Source: an uncultured Actinomycetota bacterium (GTDB lineage Bacteria > Actinomycetota > Thermoleophilia > RBG-16-64-13). Taken from it: a stretch of DNA of 64,000 nt. Position numbers and translations under genes: made by a program. The stretch lies in contig CAWCLH010000020.1 in the NCBI GenBank assembly GCA_963796315.1, positions 689,039-753,038 on the forward strand, written 5' to 3'. Numbering within the stretch: position 1 is the first letter of the stretch; each line of letters begins with the position of its first letter. This document shows positions 17,709 to 49,097 of the stretch, piece after piece. The notes below the pieces were generated by a model. That model saw nothing but the letters and a program-made list of their open reading frames with translations, was not told the origin of the DNA and made no database searches.

Positions 17709-18811
<1,103 letters not shown>

Positions 18812-18945
18812 CCTGCTCCCCCGGACTGCGGCACGCCCTCGGCCCCGAACGGAGCGCCACGGGGTGTCGCCGGCGGCCGGGAGGGCGCCAGAAGGGGCCG
18901 CGGCGCGGTGCCGGCGGCCGGTCGAGAGACCGCCCTCCACCGGCC

Positions 18946-19601: not shown

Positions 19602-19615
19602 GCGGTCCCGGCCCG

Positions 19616-20039: not shown

Positions 20040-20144
20040 ATCGGTCCTCCTCGCTCCTTCAGTCCTCGTCGGCGGGCGGAGCCCACCCCTCACAGCAAAG
20101 CGGCGGCCGCAGCCGCCGCGATCTCGCCCCTCGGTCCACGCCGA

Positions 20145-20678: not shown

Positions 20679-20760
20679 GCGCCCCCCTGTCCTCCTACAG
20701 CGACCAGGCGCCGGCGCGGCACCGGCGCGCACAGCATAACATCTGTCCTGCCCTGTCCAT

Positions 20761-22065
20761 CTAGCCCGCCAACGCTCGTTTCAGGTCGGCGATCAGGTAG
20801 AGCGACCCGGTGACCAGCACCACCTGGTTGGAGTTGGCCAGACGGTAGGCGCTCATGAGGGCCGAGCGCGGGTCGGTGTCCACAAACACCTCCGGTCCCT
20901 TCTCGATGGCCTCCAGCAGGGCCGCGAGCTCGGCGGCCGGGTAGGAGCGGGGGTTGGTGTTCTCGGTGACGAAGAGGATGTCGCAACGGGGCGCCAGGTC
21001 GGCCAGCATCTCGAGCGCGCCCTTGTCCCGCAGGATGGAGACCACCCCGATCAGGCGCCGCCGGTCGAGCAACTTGTCCAGCGAGCGGCCCAACTCCTTC
21101 ATGCCATGGGGGTTGTGCGCCCCATCCAGGATGCAGAGCGGCTGCTCGCTGATCACCTCGAGCCGGCCGGGGATGGTGGTGCACCGCAGCGCCCGCCGCA
21201 CCACCCCGATGTCCGGCGCCTCGTCCCAGGAAGAGCTCGAGGGCGCCCAGGGCCACCGCCGCGTTGACCTCCTGGTAGCTCCCCAGGACGGAGAGCCCGA
21301 TGCCCGTGTAGAGGTCGTACCGGCCGAACACGTCGAAGGTCGAGCGGCCGTTCTCGTTGAGGAGCGAGACGTCCTCCCCGAGGAAGCTGACCGTGGCCCC
21401 GCGCTCGGCGCAGATGGCCCGCAGAGCGATCGTGGACGTCCGGATCCAGGAGGCCGGCCATCACCTTGCCTCCCGACGGGATGACCGCGGCCTTCTCCTC
21501 CAGGATGGCGAGCGGGGTCTCGCCCAAGAGCTCGGCGTGCTCCAGACCGATGCTGGTCAGCACCTGCACCTCGGACTCGATGATGCTGGTGGCGTCCCAC
21601 CGCCCGCCCAGCCCGGCCTCGATCACGGCCACCTCGCAGCCCGTGCTCGGCGAAGGTCAGGAAGGCGGCCGCCGTCAAGACCTCGAACTGGGTCAGCCGT
21701 TCGCCCTCCGGCAGCGAGGCCTCGATCTCCTCCGCGACCGGCTTGACCCGAGAGACCGTCTCGTAGAACTCCTCCTCGGTGGTCGGCGCGCCATTGATCA
21801 GTTGGCGCTCCGCCAGGCTGACCAGGTGGGGACGAGACGTAGGTACCCACCTTGAAGCCCGACTCGGTCAGCAGGGAGGAGAGGAACCGCGTGGTGGACG
21901 TCTTGCCGTTGGTGCCGACCACGTGGATCGTCCGGTAGGCCAGGTGGGGACTGCCCAACGCCTCGCACAGTCGCCGGACGCGGTCCAGACCCAACCGGAT
22001 CCCCAGCATCTCCAGACCCTCGACGTACGCCCGGGCGTCGTCCAACACGCACTGTCCACGATCAT
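20761..22065 (-). CDS. folC: folylpolyglutamate synthase/dihydrofolate synthase, several frameshifts
   Basis: IRLGLDRV, IHVVGTNGKTST, VIEAGLGGRWDAT, PGRLEV..ILDGAHNPHG, VTGSLYLI. Confidence 0.92.
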
Positions 22066-24734
22066 AGGTCGAGCTCCTCACCGATACGTTCCCGATACTG
22101 CCTGCGCAGGTCCGCCAGGAGCGTCTTCGGCCCTGGCCAAGCGGTCCCGTTCCTCCTCGACCACCGCGGCCGGCGCCTTGGCGACGAACCCCTGATTGTC
22201 CAGCTTCTTGCGGGCGCGTGCCGCCTCGGCCGTGGCCTTCTCCGCCCGGCCGCGCAGCCGCCCGCGTTCGCGCTCCACGTCGACGAAGCCCTCCAGGGCC
22301 AGCAGGGCCCGCACGTCCGGACCCTCCACCGACGCGAACCGGCCGTCGGGCAGCAGCGTCCCCGGAGGCCATGACGCCCACCACCTCGCACGCGGCCAGC
22401 TGGCGCAGGGACCGGGCCTCGTGGGCCACCGCCTCGGCGGCCGCCGGGTCGGCCGCCACCAAACGCACCTGCCCGACCGCGTCGCGCGGCACCTCCAGCT
22501 CGTCGCGCGCCGAGCGCAGGCCGGCCACGATGGCCACCACGTTCTCCATGGCCCGCTCGGCCGCCGGGTCGAGCCAGTCCGGGCTCCGGGTCGGGGAAGC
22601 GCCAGTCGAAGAGGCTCGCCGGCCGTTCGCCGCTCAGCACCTGCGGCAGGTGCTGGTAGATCTCCTCGGTGACGAAGGGCATGACCGGATGGAGCAGGGC
22701 CATCACCGCTCGAGCAGGGCCAGCAGGTTGCCGCTCGACCTCGCGGCGCTCCTGGGCATCGTCGCTGTAGAGGCGGGGCTTGGCCATCTCCAGGTACCAG
22801 TCGCACATCTCGTTCCAGACGAAGCGGTAGAGCAGCCGCGCGGCCTCGGCGAAGTCGTAGCCCTCGTAGAGCGCCGCCAGCTGCCCGCTGACCGTCGAGA
22901 GGCGGCTGAAGATCCACCGGTCGGACGTGGTCGCCAGGGTGACGGCGGGGCCGGCCTCCGGGTCCGCCCCCTGCAACACCAAGCGCGAGGCGTTCCAGAT
23001 CTTGTTGGCGAAGTTGCGCCCCATCTCGATGCGCTCGGCACTGAAGCGCACGTCCTGTACGGAGCTCATGTAGAGCAGACCGAAGCGGGTGGCGTCGGTG
23101 CCGTACTCCGCGATCAGCTCCAGCGGGTCCACGCCCGTGCCCAGGCTCTTGCTCATCCGTCGGCCGTCGGCCGCCAGGATCGTCGGATGGATGATGACGT
23201 CGCGGAAGGGGACCTTGCCCGTGAACTCCAGGCCCATCATGATCATCCGCGCCACCCACAGGTAGATGATGTCCCGGGCGGTGGACAGCACCGAGGTCGG
23301 ATAGAACTCGCGCAGTTCCGGGGTGTCTCTCCGGCCAGCCCAGGGTGGCGAACGGCCAGAGCGCCGAGCTGAACCAGGTGTCCAGCACGTCGTCGTCCTG
23401 GCGCACGGTCCCACCGCAGTCGGGGCAGGCGGTCGGCTCGTCCAGGGAGACGATCACCTTCTCGCACTCGTCGCAGTACCACACCGGCAGCCGGTGCCCC
23501 CACCAGAGCTGCCGGCTGACGCACCAGGGGCGGATGCCCCGCATCCAGTCCAGGTAGACGTCCTTCCAGCGCTCGGGCACGAAGCGGACCTCGCCCCGCT
23601 CCACCACCTCGATGGCCGGCGCCGCCAACCGTTTCATGTCCATGAACCACTGCAAGCGAGAGCAGCGGCTGGATCACCGAGCCGCAGCGGTAGCAGGTGC
23701 CCACCGAATGGGTGTAGTCGTCGGCGCGGACGAACAGCCCGCGCGCCTGGAGGGCCTCGACCACCCGCGTCCGCGCCTCGTCCACCTCGAGGCCGCGGAA
23801 CTCGCCGGCCTCCGCGTTCATCCGGCCGTCGAAGTCGATGACCGACACCGCCGGCAGGTCGATGCCGCTGCCCGATCTCCCAGTCGTTGGGGTCGTGCCC
23901 CGGGGTGATCTTGAGCGCCCCGGTCCCGAACTCCGGGTCCACGTGCTCGTCGGCGATGATGGGCACCTCGCGCTCGACCAGGGGGACCACCGCGGTGCGG
24001 CCCACGTACTTGCCGTAGCGGGGGTCTTTGGGGTTCACCGCGATGGCCGTGTCGCCCAAGATCGTCTCCGGCCGGGTGGTGGCCACCGTCAGGCTCTCCT
24101 CCGCGCCCACGATGGGGTAGCGGACGTAGTAGAGCTTGTCGGTCCGCTCCACGTGCTCCACCTCCAGGTCCGAGATGGCCGAGCCGCAGTGGGTGCACCA
24201 GTTGACCAGGTAGACGTCGCGGTAGATGTCGCCCTTCTCGTACAGGCTGACGAACACGCGCAGCACGGCCTCGTGGTAGGCCTCGTCCATGGTGAAGCGC
24301 TCGCTCCCGTAGTCGCAGGCGCAGCCCAGGCGCTTCAGCTGGTGGATGATGGTCGAGCCGTACTCCTCCCGCCAGTCCCACACCCGCTGCTCGAAGCCGT
24401 CCCGCCCCAGGTCGTACTTGCGGAGGCCCTCGCTGGCCAGCTGGGCCTCCACCTTCGCCTGGGTGGCGATGCCGGCGTGGTCGGTGCCCAGCACCCAGAG
24501 CGTGTTGAAGCCCCGCAGGTGGTGATAGCGGATCAGGGCGTCCTGGATGGTGCCGTTCAGCGCGTGCCCCATGTGCAGCGACCCGGTGACGTTGGGCGGA
24601 GGGATGGCGATGGAGTAGCTCGGCCGCGAGGGGTCGACGTCCGAGTGGAACGCGTCGCGTTCCAGCCAGGCGGCCATCAGCCGCTCCTCCACCTCATGCG
24701 GCGCGTAGCGGGCGGGCATGGTCACGTCGGTCAC
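22062..24734 (-). CDS. valS: valine--tRNA ligase, several frameshifts
   Basis: [57 protein letters not shown]; C-terminal coiled coil [10 protein letters not shown]. Confidence 0.96.
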
Positions 24735-27267
24735 TCGGACTCCTCTCCGCTCGTCCCTGCGGTCGGGGGCGCGCCTGCGCTCAGCACCCAGGGCACCACC
24801 TCGGGGAAGCGCGCCACATAGACGATCTCCAGGCCCCGCAGGAGCTCGGCCGAGACCTCCTTGACCTGCCCCTGCATGCCGTCGGGAAGGATGACGACGA
24901 GCACGCCCTCCCGCCGCGCCGCCAAGCAGCTTCTCTTTCAGCCCGCCCACCGGCAGGACCTGGCCGGTCAGGGTGATCTCGCCGGAGAGCGCCACCCGCG
25001 GCAGCAACGGCACCTGCGTCAGCGCGGACAGCAGGGACACCGCCACGGCCACGCCGGCGGACGGGCCCTCCTTGGGCACGCGCGCCCTCGGGCAGATGCA
25101 TGCGCACCTCCAGCGCCGACAACAGCTCGTGGTCGCTGGGGCCCGGCGCCTCGCCCTCGGCGACCTCGCCGCCTTCGGCCTCTCCTGCCTCCACCAGGGT
25201 GCCCGGCTCGCCGGGACCGTCGCCCCCCAGCCCCTCCGGCGGCGTGAAGTGCTCGGCCAGGTAGGCCCGGCCGGGCGATCCCTCCCACAGCGCGCGCAAC
25301 ACGGGCTCGCGGGTCAGGGTGGTCTTGAGATAGCCCCAGGCAGCCGTCACGCTCTCCTGCATGACCTCGCCCAGCTGACCGGTCAGGTGGAAATCGCCCT
25401 TACCCGGGCGCCACCACCGTCTCGATCCGCAGGATGTCTCCCCCGGCGCCGGTGTAGGCCAGACCGGTGCTCACCCCCACCAGCGGCTCGTCCTCCAAGC
25501 GGGGGCGCAGGTAGGGGCGGGCGCCCAGCAGGCGCTCCACCTCTCGGGGGCCCACGCGGCGGGGCAGGGGCTTGGCGTCGACCCGCAACCGCGCCAGCTT
25601 CCGGTACACCTTGCCGATGAGCCGGGCCAGCTCGCGCACGCCCGCCTCCCGGGTGTACTCCTCGATGATCAGACGGAGGGCGGAACGGGTGACCACGTCC
25701 CCCAGCTCGGCCAGGCCGTTCTCCTCGGCCAGCTTGGGCAGCAGGTGGCGCCGGGCGATCTCCTCCTTCTCTCGGTCGGTGTACCCGGGCAGGCGGATGA
25801 CCTCCAGCCGGTCGTGCAGGGTCTCCGGGATGTCCTCCTCGTAGTTGGCGGTGGCGATGAAGAGGACATGCGAGAGGTCGTAGTCGAGCTCCAGGTACGT
25901 GTCGCGGAAGGCGTGGTTCTGGACCGGGTCCAGCACCTCCATCAGGGCCGCCGCCGGGTCGCCGCGCCAGTCGGACTCCATCTTGTCCAGCTCGTCCAGG
26001 ATGACCACCGGGTCGTCCACCCCGGCGCGCTTCAGCGCGTCCAGGATGCGGCCGGGCATGGCGCCCACGTAGGTGCGGCGGTGGCCCCGGATCTCGGCCT
26101 CGTCGCGGACGCCGCCCAGGCTGATGCGCTGCAGGGGCCGCCCCAGCCCCTCGCCGATGGCGAGGGCGATGGAGGTCTTGCCCACGCCGGGCGGGCCCAC
26201 CAGGCAGAGCACCGTGTTGGGCGGGGTGCCCTCCCGCAGGCGGGCCACCGCCAGGTACTCGATGATGCGGTCCTTGACGTCCTCCAGGCCGTAGTGCGTC
26301 TCGTCCAGCACCCGGGCGACCGCGACCACGTCGGGCAGCTCGGCGCCCGAGCGCTTGCCCCAGGGCAGGGCGAGCGCGTGTGTCCAGATAGCCGGTGGCC
26401 ACGGCCACCTCGGCGGAGAACGGGGGGAGGTCGCCCAACCGGCGGATCTCCTTGGTGATGGCGGCGGCCGCCGCCTCGGGCAGGTTCTTCTCCTGCAGGA
26501 GCTTCAGGTACTTGCCCTGCTCGCCCTCTTCCTCGGCCTCCTCGCCCAGCTCCTCGCGGAGCACGCGCAGTGCGCTCGCGCAGAAACACGCGCCGCTGGT
26601 GCCGTTCGATGTTGTCGTGCACCCGATCGGCGATGTCGTGCTCGATGACCAGGAACTCGTTCTCCTCGATCAGCATCTCGAGCAGCCCCATCAGCCGCGG
26701 CTCGACGTCCTCCCCCTCCAACAATGCCTGCTTGCGGTCCGGCGCCACCAGGAGGTGCGAGGCCACGATGTCGACCATGTCCTCCGGGTCGGTGACCGAG
26801 TCGAGGACGGTCTCCGCTTCCTCCGGCAGCTCGGGCGTCTCGGAGACGTACGCCGCGAACTCGCGCGCCACCGCCTCCATCAGCGCTCGGATGCGCGACC
26901 AGTTCTGGGGAGCCTTGGTCTCGAGCGGCCGCACGCGCACGGCGAAGTGGGGCGCCACCGAGTCGAAGGACTCGATGGTGACCCGGCTCTGCCCTTCGAT
27001 CAACGCCTTGACCGTGCCGTCGGTCAGGCGGGAGAACTGGACCACCTTGGCCAGCGTGCCCACCCGCTCGATGTCGTCTGCGTCGGGCTCCTCGACCGAG
27101 GCGAGCTTCTGCGCCGACAGGATCAGAGGGGTGCCGGTGACGTAGGCCTGCTCCAGGGCGCGCACCGACTTCTCCCGGCCCACGAAGATGCTGGTCAGCA
27201 TCTTCGGGAAGAGGATCAGGTCACGTGTCGCAAGGAGCGGAAGGGTCGTCCGCTGGAGATCGGGCAA
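24731..27267 (-). CDS. lon: ATP-dependent protease Lon, several frameshifts
   Basis: Lon N domain, [48 protein letters not shown] (Ser), VGGLKEK (Lys). Confidence 0.94.
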
Positions 27268-27280
27268 ACTCGCGCTCCCG

Positions 27281-28552
27281 CTAGGCCGATTCTTCGTCCA
27301 GCTCGAGCTCGTCGTGGACCGTGCTGGTGACCAGGGTCGGTTCGATCTGCTTCTCGATGACCTCTTTGGTCACCACGCACTTGCTCACGTCGCGGCGGCT
27401 GGGCAGCTCGAACATGACGTTCAGGAGGGCGTTCTCGATGATGGAACGCAGCCCGCGGGCGCCGGTCTCCCGCAGGATGGCCCGCTCGGCGATGGCGTCC
27501 AGCGCCTCGCTCTGGAAGATCAGCTCCACCCCGTCGTAGGCGAAGAACTTCTTGTACTGCTTGACCAGCGCGTTCTTGGGCTCGGTCAGGATGGCGACCA
27601 GATCCTCCCGCTTGAGCTGGTGGACGTTGGAGACGACGGGCAGCCGTCCGATGAACTCGGGGATCAGCCCGTACTCCAGCAGGTCCTCCGGGAGCACGTG
27701 GGCGAAGAGCTGACCCACGTCGCGGTCCTGCTTGCCCTCGATGATCGCGCCGAAGCCCACGCCCTTCTTCCCCACGCGCCGCTCGATGATCCTCTCGAGG
27801 CCGGCGAACGCACCCCCGCAGATGAAGAGGATGTTGGTGGTGTCGATGGTGAGGAACTCCTGGTGCGGGTGCTTGCGGCCGCCCTGCGGCGGGACGCTCG
27901 CGGTGGTGCCTTCCAGGATCTTCAGCAGGGCCTGCTGGACTCCCTCGCCGGAGACGTCCCGGGTGATGGAGGGGTTCTCCGCCTTGCGGGCGATCTTGTC
28001 GATCTCGTCGATGTAGATGATGCCCGTCTCCGCCTTCTTGACGTCGAAGTCGGCGGCCTGGATCAGCTTGAGCAGGATGTTCTCCACGTCCTCGCCCACG
28101 TAGCCCGCCTCGGTCAGCGCGGTGGCGTCGGCGATGGCGAAGGGGACGTTCAGGATGCGGGCCAGGGTCTGCGCCAGCAGGGTCTTGCCGCAGCCGGTGG
28201 GGCCGATCAGCATGATGTTCGACTTCTGCAGCTCGATGTCGGCGTCCTCGTACGCCCCCATCTGGACCCGCTTGTAGTGGTTGTACACCGCTACCGACAG
28301 GCTGCGCTTGGCCTCGTCCTGCCCGATCACGTAGTCCGAGAGGACGTCGTGGATCTCCTTGGGCTTGGGCAGGTGCTCGAGATCGAGCGGGACCGGGGCG
28401 GCCAGCTCCTCGTCGATGATCTCGTTGCAGAGATCGATGCACTCGTCGCAGATGTACACGCCGGGACCGGCGATCAGCTTCTTGACTTGGCGTTGGCTCT
28501 TCCCGCAGAAGCTGCAGAGCAGCTGTTCGGAGCCTCCAGACGACTTGGGCAC
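27281..28552 (-). CDS. clpX: ATP-dependent Clp protease ATPase subunit ClpX
   Basis: CSFCGK..ICDECI zinc finger, [25 protein letters not shown] loop; intact. Confidence 0.98.
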
Positions 28553-36973: not shown

Positions 36974-37648
36974 GTGCAGCCGCCCGACGCCACGGTCGAC
37001 CCGGATGCAGCGCTCGTCGCCCGAGCCCGCCTGGGCGACCGGAAGGCCATGCACGAACTCTACCAACTGCACGAACGACGCGTGTACAACCTGGCCTTGC
37101 GGATGACCGGCAATCCCTGGGACGCCGCGGACGCCACCCAGGAGGCCTTCATCAAAGCCTTTACGGGCCTGGAGAGCTTCCGCGGAAACGCGCGCTTCAG
37201 CACCTGGATCCATCGCATCACCGTCAACGTCGTCTACGACCACCTGCGTCGCCGCCGCCCCGATCCCCTCGACGAGGAGACCATGGACCGGCTGGCATCG
37301 ACGCCCTCAGACCAGAGCCCGGGCCGCTCCGGGACGTTGCAGGGGATCGAGCCGATCCTGGACGGGCTCTCCGACGAGGTCACGTCCGCGCTCCTTTCCC
37401 TCGAGGAAAGCTTCCGGCTGACCGTCGTGTTGTGCGATCTGCTGGGCTTCAGCTACGGCGAGGCCGCCGAGATCCTGGAAGTCCAGGAGGGTACGGTCAA
37501 GTCCCGCCTGTTTCGTGCCCGGGCGCTGCTCGGGAAGCAGCTGGCGTCCCGGAGAGGGCCTCAGCCCTCTCCAGACCCAGGGACAGCCAGGAACCCCAAG
37601 GACGCGCCGGACGTCCCATCAACGAAGACCGCGAAAGAGACGGGTTGA
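36974..37648 (+). CDS. ECF-type RNA polymerase sigma factor
   Basis: DAADATQEAFIKAF..FRGNARFSTWIHRITVN (region 2); FSYGEAAEILEVQEGTVKSRLFRAR (region 4). Confidence 0.95.
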   Translation: MQPPDATVDPDAALVARARLGDRKAMHELYQLHERRVYNLALRMTGNPWDAADATQEAFIKAFTGLESFRGNARFSTWIHRITVNVVYDHLRRRRPDPLDEETMDRLASTPSDQSPGRSGTLQGIEPILDGLSDEVTSALLSLEESFRLTVVLCDLLGFSYGEAAEILEVQEGTVKSRLFRARALLGKQLASRRGPQPSPDPGTARNPKDAPDVPSTKTAKETG

Positions 37649-37649
37649 G

Positions 37650-38702
37650 GTGAACGAGCGGGACAGGCACATCGCCACTCCCCTGCCGGGGCCGGACGTG
37701 CACGTGCACGATTGGGGCGCGCTTGCGCTCGACTACGTCGACGGGACGCTGGGCCCGGAAGCCTCGTCGGCGGTGGAACAGCACCTCGCCTCCTGCGAGG
37801 AGTGCCGCTCGGTCCTCGCCCAGCAGTCGGCGGCCGCCCAGGCGCTCACCGCGGCTTCCCTAGCCCCGCCGCCGGCCGAGTTGCACGCCGCCGTGTTCGC
37901 CGCCCTGGACCTCTCACTGGCCGCCGCACGACCGGCGCGCCGGAACTGGTGGACCCGGCTGGAGCCGCGGCTGCTCCGGCCCCGCGTCCTGCTCCCTGCC
38001 GCAGCCGCCATCCTGCTGCTCGCCGTGACGTTGAACGGCCTGCCCCTCGCCCGCTGGGCGGCCGACGAGTCCGCCACTACCACGTTTCCGGCGGAGATGA
38101 CGGTCGATGCCGGCCAGGCCGCCGGAGCCACCGCCACGACTGCCGCGGGGAACGCGATGGGCTTCCTGTCGTCGACCGCGACGACGAGTTACGCGGCGCC
38201 CAGTGCACCGTCGACGACCGTCAGCTTGGGGACCACACGGGGCACCACGTCGAGTGTCACGCAGACGGCCTCCGATGCGTGGGAACCGAGTGCCTCCCTC
38301 CTCACGCCTTACCTGGTGGAAGCCCGGGCCCCGGCCGACGGCCATCCGGCGGCCCTGCTCGTCAGCTCCTCCCTCGGCGTGAGCCCGGTGACATCGAGTC
38401 TCTGGCTGGGCGGGCCGACCTTCGCCGTGCTGGTGCCCCGGATCGAGCTGAGCGCCCTGTTCGCCCGCCTCGAACGCACCGGCCTCACGCTGAATGCGTT
38501 CGCGCAGGGGAGCGCGCGCCCTGGTTCGCCGGCCGCGCTCCTGGCTCACGCGTGGCGCAGCTATCCCGTATTGGTGGCTCTGAACGTGGGAGACCCGCTG
38601 GGACCGGTGTTTATCCCGCAGACGCTGGGCCCTACCCCGGGGGACACGCCGCCGGCCGGCCTGGCCCTAGTCGTCGTCACCGCGTCGGATCAGGTCAGGT
38701 AG
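37650..38702 (+). CDS. zinc-finger (zf-HC2/ZAS) transmembrane anti-sigma factor
   Basis: DYVDGTL..EQHLASCEEC (HxxxCxxC), one TM segment, Thr/Ser-rich linker and an extracytoplasmic domain; directly follows the sigma gene. Confidence 0.88.
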   Translation: MNERDRHIATPLPGPDVHVHDWGALALDYVDGTLGPEASSAVEQHLASCEECRSVLAQQSAAAQALTAASLAPPPAELHAAVFAALDLSLAAARPARRNWWTRLEPRLLRPRVLLPAAAAILLLAVTLNGLPLARWAADESATTTFPAEMTVDAGQAAGATATTAAGNAMGFLSSTATTSYAAPSAPSTTVSLGTTRGTTSSVTQTASDAWEPSASLLTPYLVEARAPADGHPAALLVSSSLGVSPVTSSLWLGGPTFAVLVPRIELSALFARLERTGLTLNAFAQGSARPGSPAALLAHAWRSYPVLVALNVGDPLGPVFIPQTLGPTPGDTPPAGLALVVVTASDQVR

Positions 38703-39325
38703 AAGTACAGGGCGTAGAGCATCTCCTCGGCCGGGTTGATCGTGTGCACCGTCACGGCTTCCGGCACGGCGATCAAGGTCTCGGTGTAGTTGAAGATGAT
38801 GCGCACCCCGCCCTCGACCAAGGCGTCCGCGGCCTTCTGCGCCTCGGCGGGCGGCACCGCGATCACGCCGAGCACGATGCCGCTCTCGCGGCAGCGCTCG
38901 GCGATACGGCTGTTCGGTTCGATAGGGAGATCCCCCACCTGGCTGCCGATCTTGTGAGGATCGTTGTCGAACGCGGCCACGATGCGGAAGCCGTGCTCGC
39001 GGAAGATCGAAGAGGTCGCGATCGCGCTCCCCAGATGTCCCACTCCCACCAGCGCGATGTTGTGGATGCCGCTGGTGTGCAGGATCTCCTGGATCTGCGA
39101 GATCAACGAATCGATGTTGTAGCCCACGCCGCGCTTGCCGAACTTGCCGAAGGTGGAGAGGTCGCGTCGCACCTGAGTGGGGTTCACGTTCGCGTGCTCG
39201 CTGATCTCCTGGGAAGAGATGCTGTCCAAGCCCTGCTTCTTTGACTGGGTCAAGATCCGCAGGTAGGCAGACAGCCGTGCCGCGACACCCAACGTCAACT
39301 TCTCGGCCACCTTCTCGTCCTCCAT
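38690..39325 (-). CDS. rex: redox-sensing transcriptional repressor Rex
   Basis: RLSAYLRIL..ISSQEI..QVRRDLSTFGKFGKRGVGY, LVGVGHLGSA, AAFDNDPHKIG. Confidence 0.96.
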   Translation of the reverse strand: MEDEKVAEKLTLGVAARLSAYLRILTQSKKQGLDSISSQEISEHANVNPTQVRRDLSTFGKFGKRGVGYNIDSLISQIQEILHTSGIHNIALVGVGHLGSAIATSSIFREHGFRIVAAFDNDPHKIGSQVGDLPIEPNSRIAERCRESGIVLGVIAVPPAEAQKAADALVEGGVRIIFNYTETLIAVPEAVTVHTINPAEEMLYALYFYLT

Positions 39326-39377
39326 GCTTCCCCCAGATCCGGGCTCACGACGTCGACCGCCACAGCTCTCCAAGAGC

Positions 39378-39395
39378 TTGTGAACACTTTCCCAT
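39378..39395. promoter_or_regulatory. candidate Rex operator (autoregulation)
   Basis: TTGTGAA-CACT-TTCCCAT versus consensus TTGTGAA-N4-TTCACAA (2 mismatches), 53 nt upstream of rex. Confidence 0.65.
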
Positions 39396-39454
39396 AAAAT
39401 GCCAAACCGCACAAGCTGCCCCGACGAAGCCGACGCCGTTCACTCGGGTCCTGC

Positions 39455-40093
39455 TCAGCCCCCCGTCTGTTCGTCGGGCGGGAGGGCTTCCATGCCCGCC
39501 TGATACGCGCGCACAGCGTGACGCACGCGCGCTAGGCGCTGGCGCAGTTGCTCGGTTGCGTCGAGCGGTGAGGCCTCCGGCGGACGCGGCATCTCCGCCT
39601 CCTCCAAGTCCTGGAGCGCGCTCTGAAGCTCGCCCGGGGAGAGGTCGGCCAGCGCCTGCAGGTCCTGCTGCATCACCCGATGGCTGGCCTCGGCCACCCG
39701 ATCCATCTGTCGACGGACCACCGGGTTATACACGGCCCCGGGGTCGATGCGCGCCGCGATCTCGTCCACCTCGCGCACGATGTCTTCTTCGCTCGCCCCC
39801 GGCTTGGGACGGATGGTCACCCGGCCGAAGGCGTCCTCCTCCACGGACTCGATCGACAGGAACGAGCGGAGGAACCCCTCGGCGAAGGCGACGGGAACGC
39901 TGGCGGCCGTGGCCAGGATATCGAAGACGTCGCGGGCGAATTCGCCGAAGGTCTGCGTCCGCACGTAGCTCGACTGGATGAGGCCAAGGACCATCGGACG
40001 CAGGACGGACTGACCGGGCGCTGACCGAATGTCGAGCAACGCCGGATCGCCCGAGGCGGCGGGGTCGACGGACTGGTCAAGATCACGATCCAC
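39455..40093 (-). CDS. hypothetical protein (~212 aa), no family recognised
   Basis: AGGAGG then GTG at 40093; open frame with high GC3 filling the gap between tRNA-Pro and rex. Confidence 0.8.
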   Translation of the reverse strand: MDRDLDQSVDPAASGDPALLDIRSAPGQSVLRPMVLGLIQSSYVRTQTFGEFARDVFDILATAASVPVAFAEGFLRSFLSIESVEEDAFGRVTIRPKPGASEEDIVREVDEIAARIDPGAVYNPVVRRQMDRVAEASHRVMQQDLQALADLSPGELQSALQDLEEAEMPRPPEASPLDATEQLRQRLARVRHAVRAYQAGMEALPPDEQTGG

Positions 40094-40129
40094 TGGTCCT
40101 CCTGGCGGGCTAAGTCCAGATAAAGGAGG

Positions 40130-40203
40130 TCGGGGTGCCGGGATTTGAACCCGGGACCTCATCGTCCCGAACGATGCGCGCTACCAGGCTGCGCCACACC
40201 CCG
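40130..40203 (-). tRNA. tRNA-Pro(CGG)
   Basis: CGGGGTG/CACCCCG-A acceptor; CATCG-TTCGGGA-CGATG anticodon arm. Confidence 0.95.
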
Positions 40204-40215
40204 CGGACGCGTATC

Positions 40216-43200
40216 TTACACGACCCCCGATGCCCCCGCCACCAGCAGCCGGCACAGCTCGTCCTGCTCGCAGCCCCGGCACTCGGGACCTTCCCGCGCC
40301 GGATACAATCCGGCCTGCAGGCCCGCGAGCGCTCCGTCCATCGCCCGTTCGAGGACAGGACGGTCGACCTGACGGAACGCCACATCGACCGGGCGGGACG
40401 GGTCGCGCAGGAGCAGGAAGCTGACCACCACCCGCTCCGCCCCGGCGAGTAACCCGGCCAGCGCGTACACCTTCGCCTGCAGGTCGTAGGGGGCAAGTAC
40501 CTCCTCCAGAGAGCGACCGTCGAGGCGGTTGGTCTTGTAGTCCACGATCCGCCACTCCTCGTCCCCTCGGAGCAGGAGGTCGAAGTAGCCGGTGAGCAGG
40601 ACGTCCCCGTGGACGAAGGAGAAGGGGACCTCCCGGGCTCCCTGAGCGAGCCGGGGATCGTCGACCAGGGACGAGTCCCAGAAGGCCGCGACCAGGGGAG
40701 CGGCCTCTCGGAACAGGGGTGTGGGCCCGTCTCCGAAGCCACCGAGAGCGGTCGCGCCGGCGGCGAGCAGACGATCGAGTCCGTCCCGATCGGGGCGGCC
40801 CCGGAGGTCGGCGACCTCCAGGGCCGCGTGCACCAGGGTTCCCAGAGCCCGCCCGTCGGGCTCGTCCGTGCCCCCACGGGCCGGAAGCGAAGGGTCGGAC
40901 TCTGGGACCTCGCCGTCTAAGGACGGAAGATGCAGCCCCAAGCACGCGCTCGAGGTAGTACCGCCGGGGACACTGCTCGTAGAGGTGCAGCGAAGAGAAG
41001 CTCACGGGCCCGCCCCCGACCCGGCCGGAGTACCGGCTGCAGGAAGGCGGGCGGCGGCGGCGCCCACGCGCCGGGGGCTTCCCCGCCGGCCTGCGATGCC
41101 CGGGCCTCGTCGTGACCGACGGCGTCAGGGCGAGGCAGGGAGTCGACCACCAAGTCGAGGCCGGTGACAGGCCGAAGCGGCCCGCCCTGCCAATCGCCCT
41201 CCACCCCCGCACTCGCGAGAAGACATGCCAGAGGATCGTCCCCGCCGCCGTTCCGCGGCGGGAGCCCGGTGACGATCACCCGCTCCTCGGCCCGGGTAAT
41301 CGCCACGTAGGCGAGCCTCTTCTCCTCCTCCGCCTCCTCGGCGGCCGCCTGCTCCCGCAGACGACCGATGGGGCCCAGTCCCAGGCGCTCCTCGTCCTTC
41401 TTGACGTACGAGGAGGGGAGCAGGATACCTCGGTCACCCTCCCGCCCCACCAGGAAGAGCGAGGACGAGCCTCTCGTCCGCGTCCGCCCGAGGCCGGCGA
41501 GCACCACCACGGGGAACTCGAGCCCCTTGGCCTTGTGGATGGTCATGATGCGGACCACGTCCTCGTTCTCGGCCAGGACCGCGGCGCTGCCCTCCTGGGC
41601 GGCCAGGTCGCCCCGCCGGGACAGGTGGGTGACGAACCGGCGAAGGTCGGGGCCTTCCACCGCCTCGAAGGCGGCGGCGAACAACTGCAGCTTCCTCAGG
41701 TTGGCGAAGCGACGCTTGCCCGAGGGTGCGGACAAGACCACCAGGTCGTAGTCGAAGGTCTCCAGGCAACGCTCGAGGAGGTCGGCCAGGCCCGGGCGGC
41801 CAAGCGATCCGCGAAGTGATTCGAGGCGTTCCCGGAACCGGCTGAGCCTCTGTAGCTCGACGGAGCCCGCCCCGTCCACCACGCCGCCACGCACCGTCTC
41901 CCAGAGAAACTCTCCCTGGTCGGCGCGGAGTTGCCGGTGCAGCAGGTAGAGGAGGTCGTCGGAGCAGCCCGCCAGCGGCGACCGCAGGACGGTGAGCAGG
42001 GCCAGGTCATCGCAAGGGTTGACCAGCACGCGGAGCAGCGCCAGGAGGTCGGTCACCTCCTCTCGAGCATAGTAGCCGCGACCGCCGACGACGTAAGCAG
42101 GGACGGCGGCCTGCTCGAGCGCGTCCTCGAACTGCTCTACGTGGGTGAAGGAGCGCAGCAGAACGACGATGTCGCCCGCGCTCCAGCCCTCCTCGTCGAT
42201 CAGCCTGCGGATACGCTGCCCGACTCCCCGGGCCTCGCGCTCGCGGTCCGGATCGTCCCCCCGTCCTCCTCCGTCGGCCTCCGCGAGCAGGAGGATCTCC
42301 ATCGCCGGTCCGAGCACGGGGTCTGACCCCTCGCGGCCGCGACGCGGACCCTCGGCGCCGCGGTGCGCCCGAAGGCGGGGAAACTCAGCACCGAAGAGCC
42401 GCTGGCCGGCGAAGAGATGGTTGATCACGTCCACGAGCGGCCCCCGCGAACGGAACGTCGTCGCCAGGGGCAGGACGGCGGCCCGTCCGCCCTCCCCCTC
42501 GCCGCACCGGTCGCGTCGCTGCAGGAAGACCTGAGGGTCCGCCCCCCGAAACGCGTAGATGCTCTGGTGGTAGTCCCCTACGGTGAGCAGGGTGCCTGCG
42601 CCCAGGCGGTCGATCAGACGGCACTGCAGGGCGTTCGTGTCCTGGAACTCGTCGACCATCAGGCGGGCTTCCGGGGCGAAAGGCACCAGCCCGCCCTCGA
42701 GGAGCCCCACCGTGTGCAGCTCCAGGTCGGCGAAGTCCAACATCCCCGCCTCGCCCTTCCGCCCCTCGTAAGCAGAGTGAAACTGTTGAAGGAGGCGGTC
42801 GATCGTCCGGGCCAACGGCACCAGGCAGTGGGCCGCCAGCACCCGCCGGTAGCTCTCAAGCGCCTCCCGCGCTTCCGCGAAGAGGGGCTTGGCTTGAGCG
42901 GCGCAGTTCATCGCCGGGAAGTACCGCAGGGTGCGTCTCAGGCTCAGGAGGGTGTCGGCGCTGCCGGGAAGCCACGCGCGGCACTCCCGCAGGAGCTCCG
43001 TGTTGCGCACGGCCGTCTTCGTATCGAAGCGGGCGGTCTCCCCGCAGACCCGATCCAGGACCCGACCGAACGCCTCCTTGGCCGGCCATAGGTCGGGAGG
43101 GTCCTCCACACGGAATCGAGGAGAGCGCTCGCCGGCGCCCCTCAACCGATCGTAGGCGGAGACCAGTTGGCCTTCGATCTCTCCTCGGAACCGCGCCATC

Positions 43201-43643
43201 AGGTCCAGCTCCGCCGCTCCCGCCTCGCCGACGGCCCGCGCCCAGACGTCGCGCCACACCTCCGCGCGAAGGAGAAGGGACGCGTCCTCGTCCAACAGTC
43301 CGAACTCGGGGTCGAGGCCGGCCTCCAGAGCGTGCTCTCGCAGCAAGCGGGCGCACAGGCTGTGGATGGTGCCGATGGGCGCCGCCTCCAGGGACCAGGC
43401 CAGGTCGGGTCTGCCCCGATCCAGCATGGCCCGCCGGATACGTTCCTTCAGCTCGGCAGCCGCTTTGCGGGTGAACGTCACCGTGGGCAGCAGCTCGATC
43501 GGGACCGCCTGATCGACGGCCGCTCGTACGTACCGCTCCACCAACAGCGAGGTCTTGCCGCTGCCCGCCCCGGCCGCGACGAAGACGGTGGGCTGGGCAG
43601 CATCCAGGACCCGGCCCTGTTCCTCGGTGAACGACAGCGTCAT
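40216..43643 (-). CDS. AddA/AdnB-type UvrD helicase with C-terminal PD-(D/E)XK nuclease, frameshifts near 41015 and 40945
   Basis: AGAGSGKT, TFTRKAAAELKERI, TIHSLC, VDEFQDTN, VGDYHQSIYAFRGA, MTIHKAKGLEF, LAYVAITRA; nuclease GYFDLL..IVDYKT..Q..Y. Confidence 0.92.
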
Positions 43644-46600
43644 CGTCTCCCCCGAGAGCGGCAGAGGGGACCCAACCGGCAGTAGGAGGGGCAGGATCGG
43701 GGAGACTCCGGCTGGATGCGACCCGCCCGCATGCCCTGGGCCGCGGCCCGCGCGGCGTCGAGGCAGGCGGCGAGCTCCGCCTCGAAAGCATCCTCCTCCA
43801 CCGCGGCGCTGCGCGACAGCCACGACCCCAGCAAGGGGGCGTGCTCTTTGAGGACCATGCCCCGCCGCTTCTCCGAGGCGAGCGCCACGTAGCCCCCGCC
43901 GGCCAGCCGCCGCTCCGGTGATGCGGCGCGAAGAGCCGACAGGTAGAGCGGGACCTGGAGCGCGCCGTTGGGGGCGAAGGTCGGACCGTAGGCCGTGCCG
44001 CCGCTCTTGTAATCGATGACGAAGACCGGCCCGTCCGCCGGTCCCACGTCGACGCGGTCGATCCGGCCGGACAGCCGGAAGCCGTCCAGGTCGACGCCGT
44101 CGCCCGCCCCCACCTCCTGCTCGAACGACGTCGGGAGCATCGAGCTGCCCGTGACGGCTTCGGCCGCCAGGAAGGCGAGCACCCGCTGACGGACCTCGAG
44201 CCCGGCCAGCCTGCGTTCCGCAGCGTCTCCCCGAGAGGCGTAGGCCTCGAGTCCGGCGTCGAGGTGGTGGTCCACCAGCGCCGCGGCCCGCTCCAAGCGG
44301 TCCTCGTCCAGCGGCAGCAACCCTTCGGTCCGCAACGCCCGATAGACGTCGGCCAGCACCTGGTGCATCACGGTCCCCTGCACGCGCGCGTCGAAAGGCA
44401 GCTCCAAGCTGACCGGACGCAGCAGCCGCTCGACGAACCAGGCGAACGGACACTGCGCATAGGATTCCAGCTCCGATGCGGAGAAGACCTCTCGCGGGCC
44501 CAGGTGGGCGAGGGCCAGGGGATGCTCCAGCGTCACCGGCGGCCGCCGCCACCGGGGTAGGTCCTCCAGGTGACGCGGGGCGTCCGCCGGTGGGCGCCGA
44601 GCCAGGGCGCAGGCGCGCAGGTACGCCCGCCGGCTGACGGGCGGCAGGGGACGCAGGTCGGGAGCGCTCCCGCCCGCCACCGGTAGGCCGAGTGGACGCC
44701 TCCTCCACGAGCGGGTCGACCACGTACCCCAGGTCCCGGGAGCGCCACACCGGCGGGCTGCCCAACGCCTCGTACGAGGCCGTCCAGTACGGGGAGACGA
44801 CGGCCTCGGCGCCATCATCCTCCGCGTTCCGCGCGGAGAGGTACAGCAGCTGCCAGGCTCGGGAGAGGGCGAAGGCGTAGAGCGCGCGTTCCTCTCCGGT
44901 GTCCGGATCGGCCAGCAGGGGAGCCGAGGCCGCGTCGTTGAGCGCGCGCCGCTCCGCATGCGACAGGAGACCCGGGCGTCGGGGCACGCCGGGGAACTCC
45001 CCGTCGACCAGACCCAGAAGGAAGACCACCTGCCAGCGACGGGCCCGCGCCCGATGCACGCTGAGGACGTGGACGACTCCACGGGCTTCCTCTCCCCCGG
45101 TGCGCACGGGCACCTGCTCCAAGACCGACGCCAACGCAGTCCAGGGAAGCCCGGCCTCCGCCTCGGAAGGGTCGGCGTGATGGCCCTCCCACTCGTCGAG
45201 CGTCCGCTCGAGCGCGGCCAGCGCCCGCGCATCCTCCTCCAGCTCCGCTCGAGGTGAGCGAGGCTCCCCGCGCCGCCGTGCGAAGGAGGCGGGCGGCGAG
45301 CGCGCGCAACTCCGCGACATCGGGACGAGCCCACCCTCCCTCTTCTGCGGGAGCGGCCCCGAGAGCCGCCCGGAACCCTGAAACCACCGTTGGCAGCGCC
45401 TGCTCGACCGCGGCCAGGAGCGCCTCTCCGGTGAGCCCTGGGTCCCGGATCAGGGTGGCTTCCAGCGTGTCGACAACGTCGGGGGGGATCCCGCTGAAAG
45501 GCGTACGCAGGTAGGTGAGCAGGCCGCTGCGGTCGGCGAGCGCGACCCCGCGAAGACCCGCCAGAAGGGCGTACCCCAGACCGGTCCGGCAGAAGGACAG
45601 CTCGCCGTCCAGGCGAAAGGGCACGCCCGCCCGCCGAAACACCCGTTCCATCACCTCCTGCCAGGGGCCCAGCTGGCGGACGAGGACCCCGATATCGTCC
45701 GGCGCCACACCCATGCGGAGGAGCTCCACGATCTCCGCTGCTGCGAGCTCCACCTCATTGCGACGCCCCGCCGAGAGGAGGAAGCGCACCCCCGCCAGCG
45801 GTCCATCCTCCGCCGGGGGCTCCGCTCCCGGTGCTTGGTCCGGGACGGCGTCGCCCGCGGCCAGCCGCTCGACACGGGCCAGCGCGCGTGACGAGAAGGC
45901 CCGCGGCTGCACCTCGAGCCGACGTACGGCCTCGGCCGTGTCCGTCCACAGTGAAGCCTCGAGGCCCGCGGAGGCGGCCGAGCCGGAGCTCGCCGCCCCA
46001 GACTCGTAGGGGAGCGCCAACAACACGGGGGCGTTCTGGGACAGGGCACGCAGCAGCCGGCGCTGCGACGGCGTGAACGACGAGAAGCCGTAGCAGGCGA
46101 CCGGCCTGCACCATCCGGTCGCCGCCTGTGCCGCCTCCAATGCGGCCTCCCCTCGCTCCGCCCGTCCTCGTCGTCTGCGCCGTTCGACGTACTCCTGGTG
46201 CAGCAGTGCGACGTCGGCGGCCACGGCTTCGGTCTCGGACGACCCCGCCCGCCAGTCGACAAGGACCTTCGCCACCTTGTCCGCCCCCAGTCCGCCGTCG
46301 GCCAGCTCCTCCAACAGCGCGGCCAGCCCTCGAACGGCGCCCGGCATCCCGCGGACGGCGCCCAGCCTAGGATAAGGGGAACCGCTCGAGCAGGGCGGCG
46401 GTCAGCAGCAGGCGCTCGGTGCGACCCATCAGCCGGGGGCGCCGCCCCAGCACGGACGCCACCACGCCGTCGAACGTCATGACCGGCCGGCTGCCCACCA
46501 CCGGCCCGATCCGTCGCAGCAACTCGAGGGAGACCGCCTGCTCCGCCGGCCGGGTGGGCACCACGATCACCGGTTCTGACACCCGCCGCTCTTCCCACCA

Positions 46601-46669
46601 CCCGATGACGTGGCCCAACTTGCCCGCATTGGGCGGGCCGAGCACGAGCGATATCCCAGAGTCAGCCAT
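43640..46669 (-). CDS. AddB/AdnA-type helicase-like scaffold with C-terminal PD-(D/E)XK nuclease, frameshifts near 46360, 45250 and 44700
   Basis: N-terminal GPPNAGKL, YGFSSFTPSQ, GLVDGEFP, ERALYAFALSRA; nuclease FSASELESYAQCPF..GRIDRVD..IDYKSG..LQVPLY..CPSYCRLGPLC. Stop overlaps the partner ATG (ATGA). Confidence 0.88.
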
Positions 46670-46676
46670 GCCCGGG

Positions 46677-46698
46677 ATTCTAACGCAGCCCTCGGACA
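46677..46698 (-). promoter_or_regulatory. PafBC/RecA-NDp-type promoter driving leaderless addB-like gene
   Basis: TGTCCG-N10-TAGAAT, then 7 nt to ATG 46669; known mycobacterial motif is TGTCGG-N10-TAnnnT. Confidence 0.75.
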
Positions 46699-46737
46699 GA
46701 CCACCGTTCCGGCCGACAGGTGCGCTACCCTTGCGTC

Positions 46738-47766
46738 ATGCCCCGCGATGACGAGAAACTGCTGCGCCAACTCTCCTTGGTCTCGTATCTGCTCTCTTCC
46801 GGCCGGCCGCGTTCCACGCGCGACATCCAGAGCTCGGTAGAGGGTTACGCCACGATGAAGGACGAGACGTTCGCCCGCCGTTTCTATGCCGACCGGGACG
46901 ATCTGGCCACGGCCGGCGTGGTGATCGAACAGGTGGACGATGCGGACGACCCGACCGGATACGCTTACTCCCTTCCCGCTCAGAACTACTACCTGGCCGA
47001 CCTCCACCTGACCGACGAGGAGCGGCGCAGCCTCGCGCTGGTGCTCGCCGTCATGGAAGGCCACTTCGCGTACGCGCGCCCGTTGCGCCTGGCTCTGGCG
47101 AGCCTCTTGGGCGGCCAGACGGGCCCCAGCGGTGACGACGTCGACCGGCTGGCCATCCGCCTCGCCGCCGATCGAGAAGCCTCTGCCGCAGGTGACCGCC
47201 TCGCCCGGCTGGACGAAGCGGTCGCACGCGGCAAGAGCGTGGTGTTCGATTACCGCACCGTCCGGGGCGATCACGCCGCCCGCACGGTCGACCCGTACAG
47301 CCTCTTCCGTATCGCCGGTCACTGGTACGTGGTCGGGCTCGATCACGACCGCGTCGACCTGCGCATGTTCCGGCTGGGACGCATCCAGGGGGCGGTCCAC
47401 TTCCTGACCAAGAAGCCGCGCGACTTCTCGATCCCCGACGACTACGATCCGGAGGCTTTTCGCTCGCGTCCCCCCTGGCTGCTGGGGACCGCGGTAGGAG
47501 TGGCCCGGGTCAGACTCGACCCGGCACTGAGCTGGTGGGTCGAGCGGACCTACCCCGGCATCCCCGCTCGCGCCCACGCGGAGGTCGCGGGCTGCGAGGC
47601 GGAGAACGTCGCGATCGATCTGCCCTACGCGGACGCTCACGCCCTGATCTCCTGGGTGCTGGGCCTGGGCGAACAGGCGGAGCTGCTGGGACCCCCCGAG
47701 CTCCGCGCCCGTCTGCTGGCGGGCCTGGACGCGATCCTCGCCGCGCACGAGGCCCCCGATGCCTGA
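46738..47766 (+). CDS. pafB: wHTH-WYL-WCX transcriptional regulator, PafB-like
   Basis: LSLVSYLL..IQSSVEGY..ETFARRFYADRDDL N-terminus; RTVDPYSL..GHWYVVGLDHDRVDLRMFRLGRI; WVLGLGEQAELLGPPELR. Confidence 0.85.
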   Translation: MPRDDEKLLRQLSLVSYLLSSGRPRSTRDIQSSVEGYATMKDETFARRFYADRDDLATAGVVIEQVDDADDPTGYAYSLPAQNYYLADLHLTDEERRSLALVLAVMEGHFAYARPLRLALASLLGGQTGPSGDDVDRLAIRLAADREASAAGDRLARLDEAVARGKSVVFDYRTVRGDHAARTVDPYSLFRIAGHWYVVGLDHDRVDLRMFRLGRIQGAVHFLTKKPRDFSIPDDYDPEAFRSRPPWLLGTAVGVARVRLDPALSWWVERTYPGIPARAHAEVAGCEAENVAIDLPYADAHALISWVLGLGEQAELLGPPELRARLLAGLDAILAAHEAPDA

Positions 47767-48745
47767 CGCCCCCATCGTCCCCGAACGCCTCTCGCGCGTC
47801 CTTTCCCTGCTGGGCTACCTGCTGGACGAGCGTCGTGGAGACCGGGTCCCGCTGGCGGATATCCACCGTGACCTGGGATTGGACCGCCGCGGGGTCGAGG
47901 AGGACCTCGCCGTGCTCAACCTGGTCAATTTCGGCGGGGGCAACTACGTGATCTACGCGTGGCTCGAAGGCGACCAGGTGGAGATCGACCGCCAACTGAT
48001 GAGTGACCCACTGGCCCGGCCCGCCCGCCTCTCTCCGTTGACGGCACGCGCCCTGCTGCTGGCGCTGGACCTCGTCGGCGACACGTTCACCGGCGCGGGC
48101 CTGGTTCCGCTCGCCTCGGTCCGGGACAAGGTGGCCGACCTCGTCGCCGAGCTTCCCGCTCCCGGTACCGTCGACCTGGTCGACCTGGCCCCCGTCGACG
48201 CCGGGGTGGTACGCGCCCTGAACCTGGGCATCCGCGAGCGGCGGCTGGTCAGGCTGACCTACTACACCTCCTCGCGCGGGGAGCTGCGAGAGCGGATCGT
48301 CGAGCCCTACCTGCTCTTCCATTCGGGGACCGCGTGGTACCTCGAGGCCTTCTGCCGGACGGCCGGCGGCGAGCGGACGTTTCGCCTCGACCTGGTCCGA
48401 GAGGCCGTCCCGTCCGAGGAGACCTTCAGCCCCCGGCCCGAGCTCGAAGCCAGACGGAGACCGGAGGAATCGCTCTTGCCCGCCTCCGGAGCCGCGGTCG
48501 CGACCGTCCGGTTCCCCGCCGGCCACCGGATCCGTCTGGAGGAGCAGGGCCTCTCCGTCGAAACGGGGAAGGACGGCGACGTGCGGGCCCGAATCCCCTA
48601 TCTAGACGAGCGATGGTTGGTGCGCGAGGTCCTGCGCTACGCGGGGGAGGCCGTGATCGAGGAGCCTGCGGAAGCGAGGGCGTCGCTGGTGCGTTCCGCG
48701 CGCTCGCTGAAGGAACGCTACCGGCGCCTGCCGACGACCGAGTGA
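47759..48745 (+). CDS. pafC: wHTH-WYL-WCX transcriptional regulator, PafC-like
   Basis: ERLSRVLSLLGYL..VEEDLAVL, RPARLSPLTARALLLAL, YYTSSRGELRERIVEP..WYLEAFC..RTFRLD; 8-nt overlap with pafB. Confidence 0.85.
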   Translation: MPDAPIVPERLSRVLSLLGYLLDERRGDRVPLADIHRDLGLDRRGVEEDLAVLNLVNFGGGNYVIYAWLEGDQVEIDRQLMSDPLARPARLSPLTARALLLALDLVGDTFTGAGLVPLASVRDKVADLVAELPAPGTVDLVDLAPVDAGVVRALNLGIRERRLVRLTYYTSSRGELRERIVEPYLLFHSGTAWYLEAFCRTAGGERTFRLDLVREAVPSEETFSPRPELEARRRPEESLLPASGAAVATVRFPAGHRIRLEEQGLSVETGKDGDVRARIPYLDERWLVREVLRYAGEAVIEEPAEARASLVRSARSLKERYRRLPTTE

Positions 48746-48755
48746 GGAGGGACCC

Positions 48756-49097
48756 GTGAGATTGCTGCTCCGCTGGGTGATCGATGCCGTCGCCGTGATC
48801 GCGGTGCTGTACCTGCTTCCCCACATCGTGCTCGACTCCCTGGTAGTCGCACTGGTGATCGCCCTCGTCCTGGGATTGGCCAATGCCGCGGCGCGCCCGG
48901 TCTTCGTGGTGCTGTCCCTCCCACTGAACCCGGCCACTTTGGGGATCTTCGTGCTCGTGATCAACGCCGCGCTGCTCGAGCTCTTCCAGCTGGTGTTCGG
49001 AAGCTTCGACCTGGGCGGGATCCTCTGGCTCGCGATCGCCACCGTCGTCATCGCGATCCTCACCACGGTGATCAACGTCCTGGTGAGTGACGAGTAG
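48756..49097 (+). CDS. 4-TMS phage-holin family (YvlD-like) membrane protein
   Basis: MRLLLRWVIDAVAV..ALVLGLANAAARP..LSLPLNPATLGIFVLVINA; GAGGAGG RBS. Confidence 0.88.
   Translation: MRLLLRWVIDAVAVIAVLYLLPHIVLDSLVVALVIALVLGLANAAARPVFVVLSLPLNPATLGIFVLVINAALLELFQLVFGSFDLGGILWLAIATVVIAILTTVINVLVSDE

Follow-up and report, generated by a model that had tools for sequence, protein, structure and literature searches.

Introduction

Mycobacterial PafBC, a regulator of the DNA-damage response, is built from two paralogous proteins of winged helix-turn-helix (wHTH), WYL and WCX domains encoded in tandem, and in Arthrobacter aurescens the two halves are fused. In Mycobacterium smegmatis PafBC is reported to be activated by single-stranded DNA (ssDNA), with the tails left by break resection proposed as one source of it (PMC11804915). 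A contact with region 4 of sigma-A is described for the same species, and the in vivo motif, tGTCgg(N10)tA(N3)T, joins a PafBC-specific -26 element to a normal -10 element without a -35 element (PMC8635444). In M. smegmatis and M. tuberculosis the resection gene adnA is described as dependent on PafBC alone (PMC8682763), and AdnAB carries UvrD-like motors in both subunits (PMC5314763). Here we analyzed a stretch of 64,000 nucleotides (hereafter the window; contig CAWCLH010000020.1 of GenBank assembly GCA_963796315.1, positions 689,039 to 753,038) from an uncultured bacterium of the class Thermoleophilia, phylum Actinomycetota, in which two wHTH-WYL-WCX genes diverge from a helicase-nuclease gene pair.

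We consider it probable that this locus is the pafB-pafC operon of a Thermoleophilia/Gaiellales bacterium without Pup, placed back-to-back with one of its own target operons, addB-addA. The locus resembles the mycobacterial and A. aurescens systems in its two tandem paralogs, with a fused form of about 700 residues in many relatives, and in a putative promoter that has a GTC-containing -26 element, a fixed spacer, a -10 element and no -35 element. A break-resecting helicase-nuclease among the likely targets and the presence of LexA in the genome are further points in common. Unlike the mycobacterial genes, those described here lie outside a pafA/Pup-proteasome locus, in a class of which 41 genomes yielded no Pup ligase; the box takes the form yGTCCG in place of tGTCgg, and the equivalent of PafB R50 is unconserved. 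The target is also directly adjacent, both transcripts look leaderless, and the resecting enzyme is of the AddAB type. A membrane-protein gene of family PF04020 follows pafC, in the place of tatAC in mycobacteria.

In the literature searched (full text, supplements of the PafBC papers aside), no paper joined PafBC with Thermoleophilia, Gaiellales or AddAB synteny. The body of the 2019 Nature Communications paper on PafBC, its supplements aside, carries no text on neighborhood, synteny or phylogeny (PMC6789036).

Identity of the regulator pair

The regulator genes are located on the plus strand at 46738..47766 (pafB) and 47759..48745 (pafC) and overlap by 8 nt (47759-47766). Alignment of orthologs favored the ATG at 46738 over a GTG at 46720 as the pafB start. 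On the minus strand, addB (43640..46669) and addA (40216..43643) are coupled, the TGA stop of addB and the ATG of addA overlapping as ATGA at 43643-43640, and the spacer between the addB ATG (46669) and the pafB ATG (46738) is 68 bp long. Coordinates and domains therefore bear out the anatomy given in an earlier sequence-only reading of the window, namely two tandem wHTH-WYL-WCX genes divergent from a translationally coupled helicase-nuclease pair. That reading had also noted that Pup-proteasome and Tat genes do not flank the module, and no Pup ligase, proteasome or Tat domain was found in the flanking open reading frames (ORFs) that we scanned.

Pfam searches identified WYL and WCX in both regulator products and HTH_PafC additionally in the second. 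The first product matched no Pfam HTH model, yet its N-terminus aligned to the PafB HTH. In the PDB, its best match was M. smegmatis PafB (chain 7p5x_AY, 1.5e-19), and the second product matched the PafC half of the A. aurescens PafBC fusion (6sj9) and M. smegmatis PafC (7p5x_AX, 7.1e-19). Other WYL regulators either matched the two products about 15 orders of magnitude more weakly or did not match them. Loci of other actinomycetotal families showed a consistent pattern, in which the upstream gene scored best with the first product and the downstream gene with the second (16/16).

A quick maximum-likelihood tree of 58 rows was built, in which rows were labeled by the higher-scoring of the two query proteins, and this label agreed with gene order in every locus. 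The 28 PafB-position rows, including the first product of the window, fell on one side of a branch with a support of 94, and the 28 PafC-position rows, including the second product, formed one clade with a support of 99. Outside both groups lay two further WYL proteins from the class. In Pup-bearing genomes a PafC-like match was located 1-6 kb from the Pup-ligase match (19 cases read, none from an unpublished genome). The best PDB matches, the tree and this proximity to pafA in Pup-bearing Actinomycetota together identify the two proteins as orthologs of PafB and PafC, in line with the PafBC-like assignment first made from the letters. No other WYL gene is present in the genome. A natural fusion of pafB and pafC into a single open frame of approximately 690-745 residues is seen in most relatives, and separate overlapping genes occur in the window and a few relatives.

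DriD of Caulobacter, SiwR, CapW and BrxR have a wHTH-WYL(-WCX) architecture and ssDNA sensing in common with PafBC, but they are homodimers from single genes, unlike the PafB and PafC pair. None of the four was among the PDB matches of the first product at E <= 1e-3, and BrxR matched the second at only 7e-4.

Identity of the nuclease pair

The addA product comprises the Pfam domains UvrD-helicase, UvrD_C and PDDEXK_1, which together describe a UvrD-type superfamily 1 (SF1) helicase with a C-terminal PD-(D/E)XK nuclease. The addB product has a degenerate N-terminal P-loop (GPPNAGKL), no recognizable helicase domain (no helicase Pfam domain in any fragment), a C-terminal PD-(D/E)XK nuclease (PDDEXK_1 at 9e-34) and a Cys cluster. 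In translation, a single Cys is found around the beginning of the nuclease and another three close to the C-terminus; these may be iron-sulfur ligands, as in Bacillus subtilis AddB.

An intact AddA ortholog had B. subtilis AddA as its best PDB match (3u44_A, 1.2e-61) and mycobacterial AdnB at 2e-23, and the sole PDB match of an intact AddB ortholog was B. subtilis AddB (3u44_B), weak at 6e-4. Among NCBIfam models, addA_Gpos ranked first for AddA with 311-320 bits against an equivalog cut-off of 708. For AddB, TIGR03623 ranked first and the addB models next, all below their cut-offs (addB_Gpos, 53 bits against 904).

The pair thus resembles B. subtilis AddAB (PDB 3U44/3U4Q) in an AddA that combines an SF1A helicase with a RecB-type nuclease, in the gene order addB-addA, and in an AddB that is helicase-like but motor-dead and carries a nuclease and a Cys cluster. 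It differs in being very divergent, as the weak AddB match and the sub-threshold equivalog scores indicate, and in a C-X2-C-X5-C motif in the AddA nuclease, read from the translation. With mycobacterial AdnAB it would share the role in double-strand-break resection and the class of regulator. The first subunit here, however, has no detectable UvrD domain, and AddA fits its partner better than AdnB does (1e-61 against 2e-23). An AdnAB identity was rejected, there being no UvrD domain in the addB fragments and no AdnA match for the intact AddB ortholog. Of the earlier label "AddAB/AdnAB-type", the first half is retained on the PDB and Pfam evidence and the second is dropped, as the first subunit lacks a UvrD motor. 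Judged from these matches, the pair is best described as divergent AddAB-type, and we do not file it as an equivalog.

Predicted promoters in the 68-bp spacer

The addB strand of the spacer contains a predicted PafBC-type promoter (46677..46698, minus strand), comprising a -26 element TGTCCG (46698-46693), a 10-nt spacer and a -10 element TAGAAT (46682-46677), followed by 7 nt and the ATG. In silico, the box fits the published PafBC consensus exactly save for one weakly conserved position. The pattern yGTCCG-N9/10-TAnnnT, with the -10 mostly TACAAT, precedes the addB start by 5-10 nt in 25 of 26 adjacent loci (the window and 25 relatives), the exceptional locus having TATCCG in place of the GTCCG element. 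It was also present in 48 of 56 named loci from a genome collection, a set that overlaps partly with the 26. No such box was found upstream of pafB in 13/13 loci with non-adjacent addBA. With the box ending only 7 nt before the ATG, the addBA mRNA is probably leaderless. A second TGTCGG (46713..46718, minus strand), read from the sequence 20 nt upstream of the first, has no -10 element at the matching distance and is not conserved as such in relatives.

On the pafB side, the likely -10 hexamer of the pafBC promoter is TACCCT (46726..46731, plus strand), 6 nt before the ATG. In 22 of the 26 loci a conserved gTGCGCTAgtCT includes a TAnnnT hexamer whose position relative to the ATG is -12 to -7, and the pafBC mRNA is probably leaderless too. 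Many relatives have a -35-like cTGACC a few bp away from the addB box as read in reverse complement, so that the two promoters would stand back-to-back.

If the adjacency were neutral, the box could be an ordinary addB promoter without PafBC dependence, and its -10 part is indeed a generic sigma-A element. Against this, the GTCCG element is kept at exactly N10 from the -10 across divergent loci, whose PafB-like proteins share only about 35-55% identity with that of the window and in which the 10 nt between vary freely. The aligned loci moreover share no conserved -35 element at addB, and the resulting architecture is that of the published PafBC hybrid promoter. We therefore regard this neutral reading as very unlikely. 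The conserved PafBC-type promoter in the spacer argues instead for direct control of addBA by PafBC.

The GTC triplet is reported to be read in M. smegmatis by PafB arginines R46 and R50. In the HTH of the PafB ortholog (residues 47-53) the equivalent of R46 is kept as R47, that of R50 is Ala and varies over the class, and R48 and R53 do not vary there; this combination of residues may be connected with the occurrence of GTCCG in the box.

A different reading of the same layout would make the pair a defense-type WYL repressor comparable to CapW or BrxR, under which the nuclease operon stays silent as long as ssDNA is absent. Repressors of the WYL type with ssDNA sensing are described (PMC11662680), and the second product has weak PDB matches to BrxR and another WYL protein (5e-4 to 7e-4). 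The PafB and PafC matches are, however, 15 orders of magnitude stronger, the box occupies an activator position (-26 relative to the -10, with no -35), and the surrounding genes are housekeeping ones, encoding Rex, an ECF sigma factor, ClpXP and Lon. We judge a repressor of this kind extremely unlikely. A defense-island interpretation of the locus was likewise rejected on the housekeeping neighbors and on PDB matches that favor PafBC.

Distribution of pafBC and of its adjacency to addBA

Of 41 genomes of the class, 40 have the pafBC pair, often fused; Pup ligase (PF03136) was found in none of the 41, and a search of the window genome gave none. The Pup-independent setting that the sequence-only reading had inferred from the flanks alone thus extends to the genome and to the class, and the regulator is not bound to the Pup-proteasome locus from which its name derives: encoding pafBC in a cluster with pafA is a trait of the mycobacterial locus and not of the protein family. 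In a sample of 301 genomes of the phylum, a PafC-like match was found in 165 and Pup ligase in 150, tallies that include 5 and 11 genomes, respectively, flagged as unpublished. Other families of the phylum also have a PafC-like protein but no Pup ligase, for example one (f30) with 11/11 against 0/11.

Adjacency to addBA was present in 22 of 24 relatives of the same family, the other two assemblies being fragmentary at the locus, and in 3/3 genomes of a second family. It was absent from all 13 loci examined in five further families. Among the 56 named loci, addB was adjacent and divergent in 53; the three exceptions are labeled Miltoncostaeaceae and Solirubrobacterales, and the rest Thermoleophilia, Gaiellales or Actinomycetota. 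With such recurrence (22/24, 3/3 and 53/56) the adjacency is more than chance, and the arrangement is kept in relatives. In the phylum sample, AddB-like genes were found in 48 of 301 genomes and lay within 10 kb of pafC only in the same two families. The adjacency is therefore lineage-specific, and the suggestion that it might be ancestral is unsupported, given its confinement to two families of one class.

In one family of the class in which pafBC is apart from addBA, a gene for a UvrD-like helicase occurs on the strand opposite to pafBC, 5-11 kb away. Its product resembles AddA in the motor alone, with an identity of 27-30%, and the true AddA ortholog of these genomes is encoded elsewhere.

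Frame changes in addB and addA

As assembled, addB has three frame changes, at about 46359-46388, 45175-45242 and 44637-44707, and addA has two, at about 41089-41202 and 40892-40902. In tblastn searches, intact orthologs from a relative followed the frames -1/-2/-3/-1 over addB and -3/-1/-2 over addA. All five changes, within 6.4 kb, shift the frame in the same direction, and sequence inspection found no obvious homopolymer runs at the sites. Both features could be expected if addB and addA were real pseudogenes and the module were decaying.

Several lines of evidence tell against decay. The orthologs in relatives are intact, single ORFs of approximately 1015-1035 residues (addB) and 1160-1250 residues (addA). 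Essential and housekeeping genes are split likewise: at 18500-27400 of the window, maf occupies two frames and lon at least three, the valS frame is broken and ndk is cut short, and recA lies in four pieces elsewhere on the contig (518348-519143). The assembly itself (3.13 Mb in 21 contigs, approximately 70% G + C) has a completeness of 78%. Third-position G + C is high in the shifted frames too.

Short-read metagenome contigs were compared with the window at these sites. Contigs from three runs (92-96% like the window) have one base fewer at 46368/46373, one fewer at 45248 and a net 10 fewer at 44653-44693, losses that coincide with all three addB frame-change sites and that each come to a net single base in terms of frame. 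The source runs carry only 7-15% of the sampled words of the window, and contigs from four runs are 90-99% like it, so these contigs come mostly from relatives and not from this strain. Taken together, the split housekeeping genes, the intact orthologs, the shorter contigs of relatives at the addB sites and the high third-position G + C make assembly indels the most likely source of the five frame changes, and we think it quite improbable that the two genes are decaying. Because the indel errors look assembly-wide, ORF-based reading of this genome needs care.

Possible regulon and weighing of the evidence

The pattern GTC[CG]G-N10-TAnnnT occurred 74 times in the genome against 27-46 times at seven other spacings (N7-N9 and N11-N14). 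For 40 strict matches, the downstream regions were scanned as stop-to-stop segments. A start codon follows the -10 element by 6-9 nt at addB, at lexA, at a recQ-like DEAD helicase gene and at a recJ-like DHH/DHHA1 gene. Strict matches also precede UvrD helicase and PHP-domain polymerase genes, and boxes lie further upstream of ruvB, nrdR and a gene for an HD/OB-fold protein. These matches suggest a regulon that extends over the genome and comprises some tens of promoters, in which the pair would act as a PafBC-type global damage regulator and addBA would be its nearest target.

Several observations weigh against the overall reading of the locus. The regulation is read from sequence only, and a search of RNA runs found none that contains this DNA. 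N10 exceeds the other spacings by a factor of only about two, and among the 40 strict matches many precede unrelated genes or sit inside genes. At recA no box was found within about 400 nt, the nearest being approximately 960 nt upstream, inside pgsA. The PafB residue equivalent to R50 is Ala51 in the window and variable across the class. The addA frame-change sites have little or no cover by short-read contigs, and those contigs that bear on the frame changes at addB derive from relatives rather than from this strain. Finally, in about 450 nt upstream of non-adjacent addB genes of Thermoleophilia, the clade pattern was found in 0 of 14 and a looser pattern in one doubtful case of 14. PafBC control of addBA would thus not be general in the class.

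The same approximate upstream distance was searched at 18 non-adjacent addB genes, and a GTCCG-type box was found in none. In a family of another class (four genomes), addB and pafBC are 18-20 kb apart, and a GTCA[GC]-N10-TATnnT element approximately 40 nt before the start of addB homology has the appearance of a PafBC-type box, here at an addB that is not adjacent. The association of box and adjacency is suggestive, with distant promoters or other box variants remaining as an objection.

The sequence-only reading had called the module self-contained, with a possible positive-feedback loop in a possibly ancestral, Pup-independent arrangement. On this view it would be a dedicated sensor-effector unit, in which the WYL pair serves chiefly to control the resection enzyme next to it. 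The tight divergent adjacency with its shared 68-bp control region, the presence of only two WYL genes in the genome, and the box in 25/26 adjacent loci against 0/14 non-adjacent addB genes of the class are all compatible with such a unit. Self-containment is contradicted, however, by the same box before lexA and before recQ-, recJ-, uvrD-like and PHP-polymerase genes, together with the N10 excess. Its ancestral aspect fits poorly with an adjacency seen in just two families among the 301 phylum genomes, and its dedicated aspect with a pafBC pair that is present in 40 of 41 class genomes whether addBA is adjacent or not. We consider a dedicated unit improbable, and return to the reading of a PafBC-type regulator with addBA as its neighboring target.

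Within that reading, the placement itself might have had a role, the back-to-back arrangement having drawn addBA into the PafBC regulon so that one complex of PafBC and RNA polymerase both activates addBA and modulates its own synthesis. The contrast between adjacent loci (box in 25/26) and non-adjacent addB genes of the class (0-1/14) is the reason for entertaining it, and just a few bp separate the addB -26 element from the -35 region of the oppositely oriented pafBC promoter. We regard this recruitment as rather doubtful. If true, the locus would be a cis-wired unit of break sensor and resector with autoregulation, and an example of regulon growth by gene relocation.

Neighboring genes

A gene for a membrane protein with four transmembrane segments (PF04020, Phage_holin_4_2; Pfam 8e-20; 113 residues) is located at 48756..49097 on the plus strand. 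It starts 11 nt after pafC, is preceded by GGAGGG, and has a homolog directly after pafC in 39 loci besides the window (94 relatives' loci searched, partly redundant). It is probably the third gene of the pafBC operon.

Directly downstream of addA and on the same strand is an ORF of 235 residues (39455-40162, minus strand) that has no Pfam match and is kept in only five of the relatives' loci searched. The ECF sigma factor gene (36974-37648, plus strand) and the Rex-type redox repressor gene (38690-39439, minus strand) lie just beyond the module, and no link to it was seen. Four pairs of box matches with identical or near-identical downstream sequence were noted between small contigs (C5, C9 and C10) and contig C20; such pairs could reflect a repeated element or assembly redundancy, with stretches of C20 present again on some of the small contigs.

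Proposed mechanism and meaning

By extension from the mycobacterial system, ssDNA arising after DNA damage would bind the WYL domains, the PafB HTH would read the -26 element, and PafBC would bridge to sigma-A region 4, a mode known as "sigma adaptation". RNA polymerase would then start the leaderless addBA mRNA, and AddAB would resect double-strand breaks to 3' single strands for RecA. The resection tails could in turn feed back on PafBC. Such positive feedback is plausible; the loop would exist without adjacency and is not specific to it, given that in mycobacteria PafBC already acts on adnA in trans, and on this analysis its logic can be seen as already implicit in the known mycobacterial system.

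The locus is a new, lineage-specific and conserved syntenic variant of a known regulatory circuit, and it leaves the current picture of PafBC function unchanged. The 68-bp spacer, with two probably leaderless starts and one GTC element, offers a compact test promoter for a non-mycobacterial PafBC, and the adjacent addBA operons with a box and the non-adjacent ones at which none was found provide a small natural experiment on the recruitment of genes into a regulon. More broadly, the findings suggest that PafBC and the -26/-10 promoter of "sigma adaptation" reach into a deep and largely uncultured class of actinobacteria.

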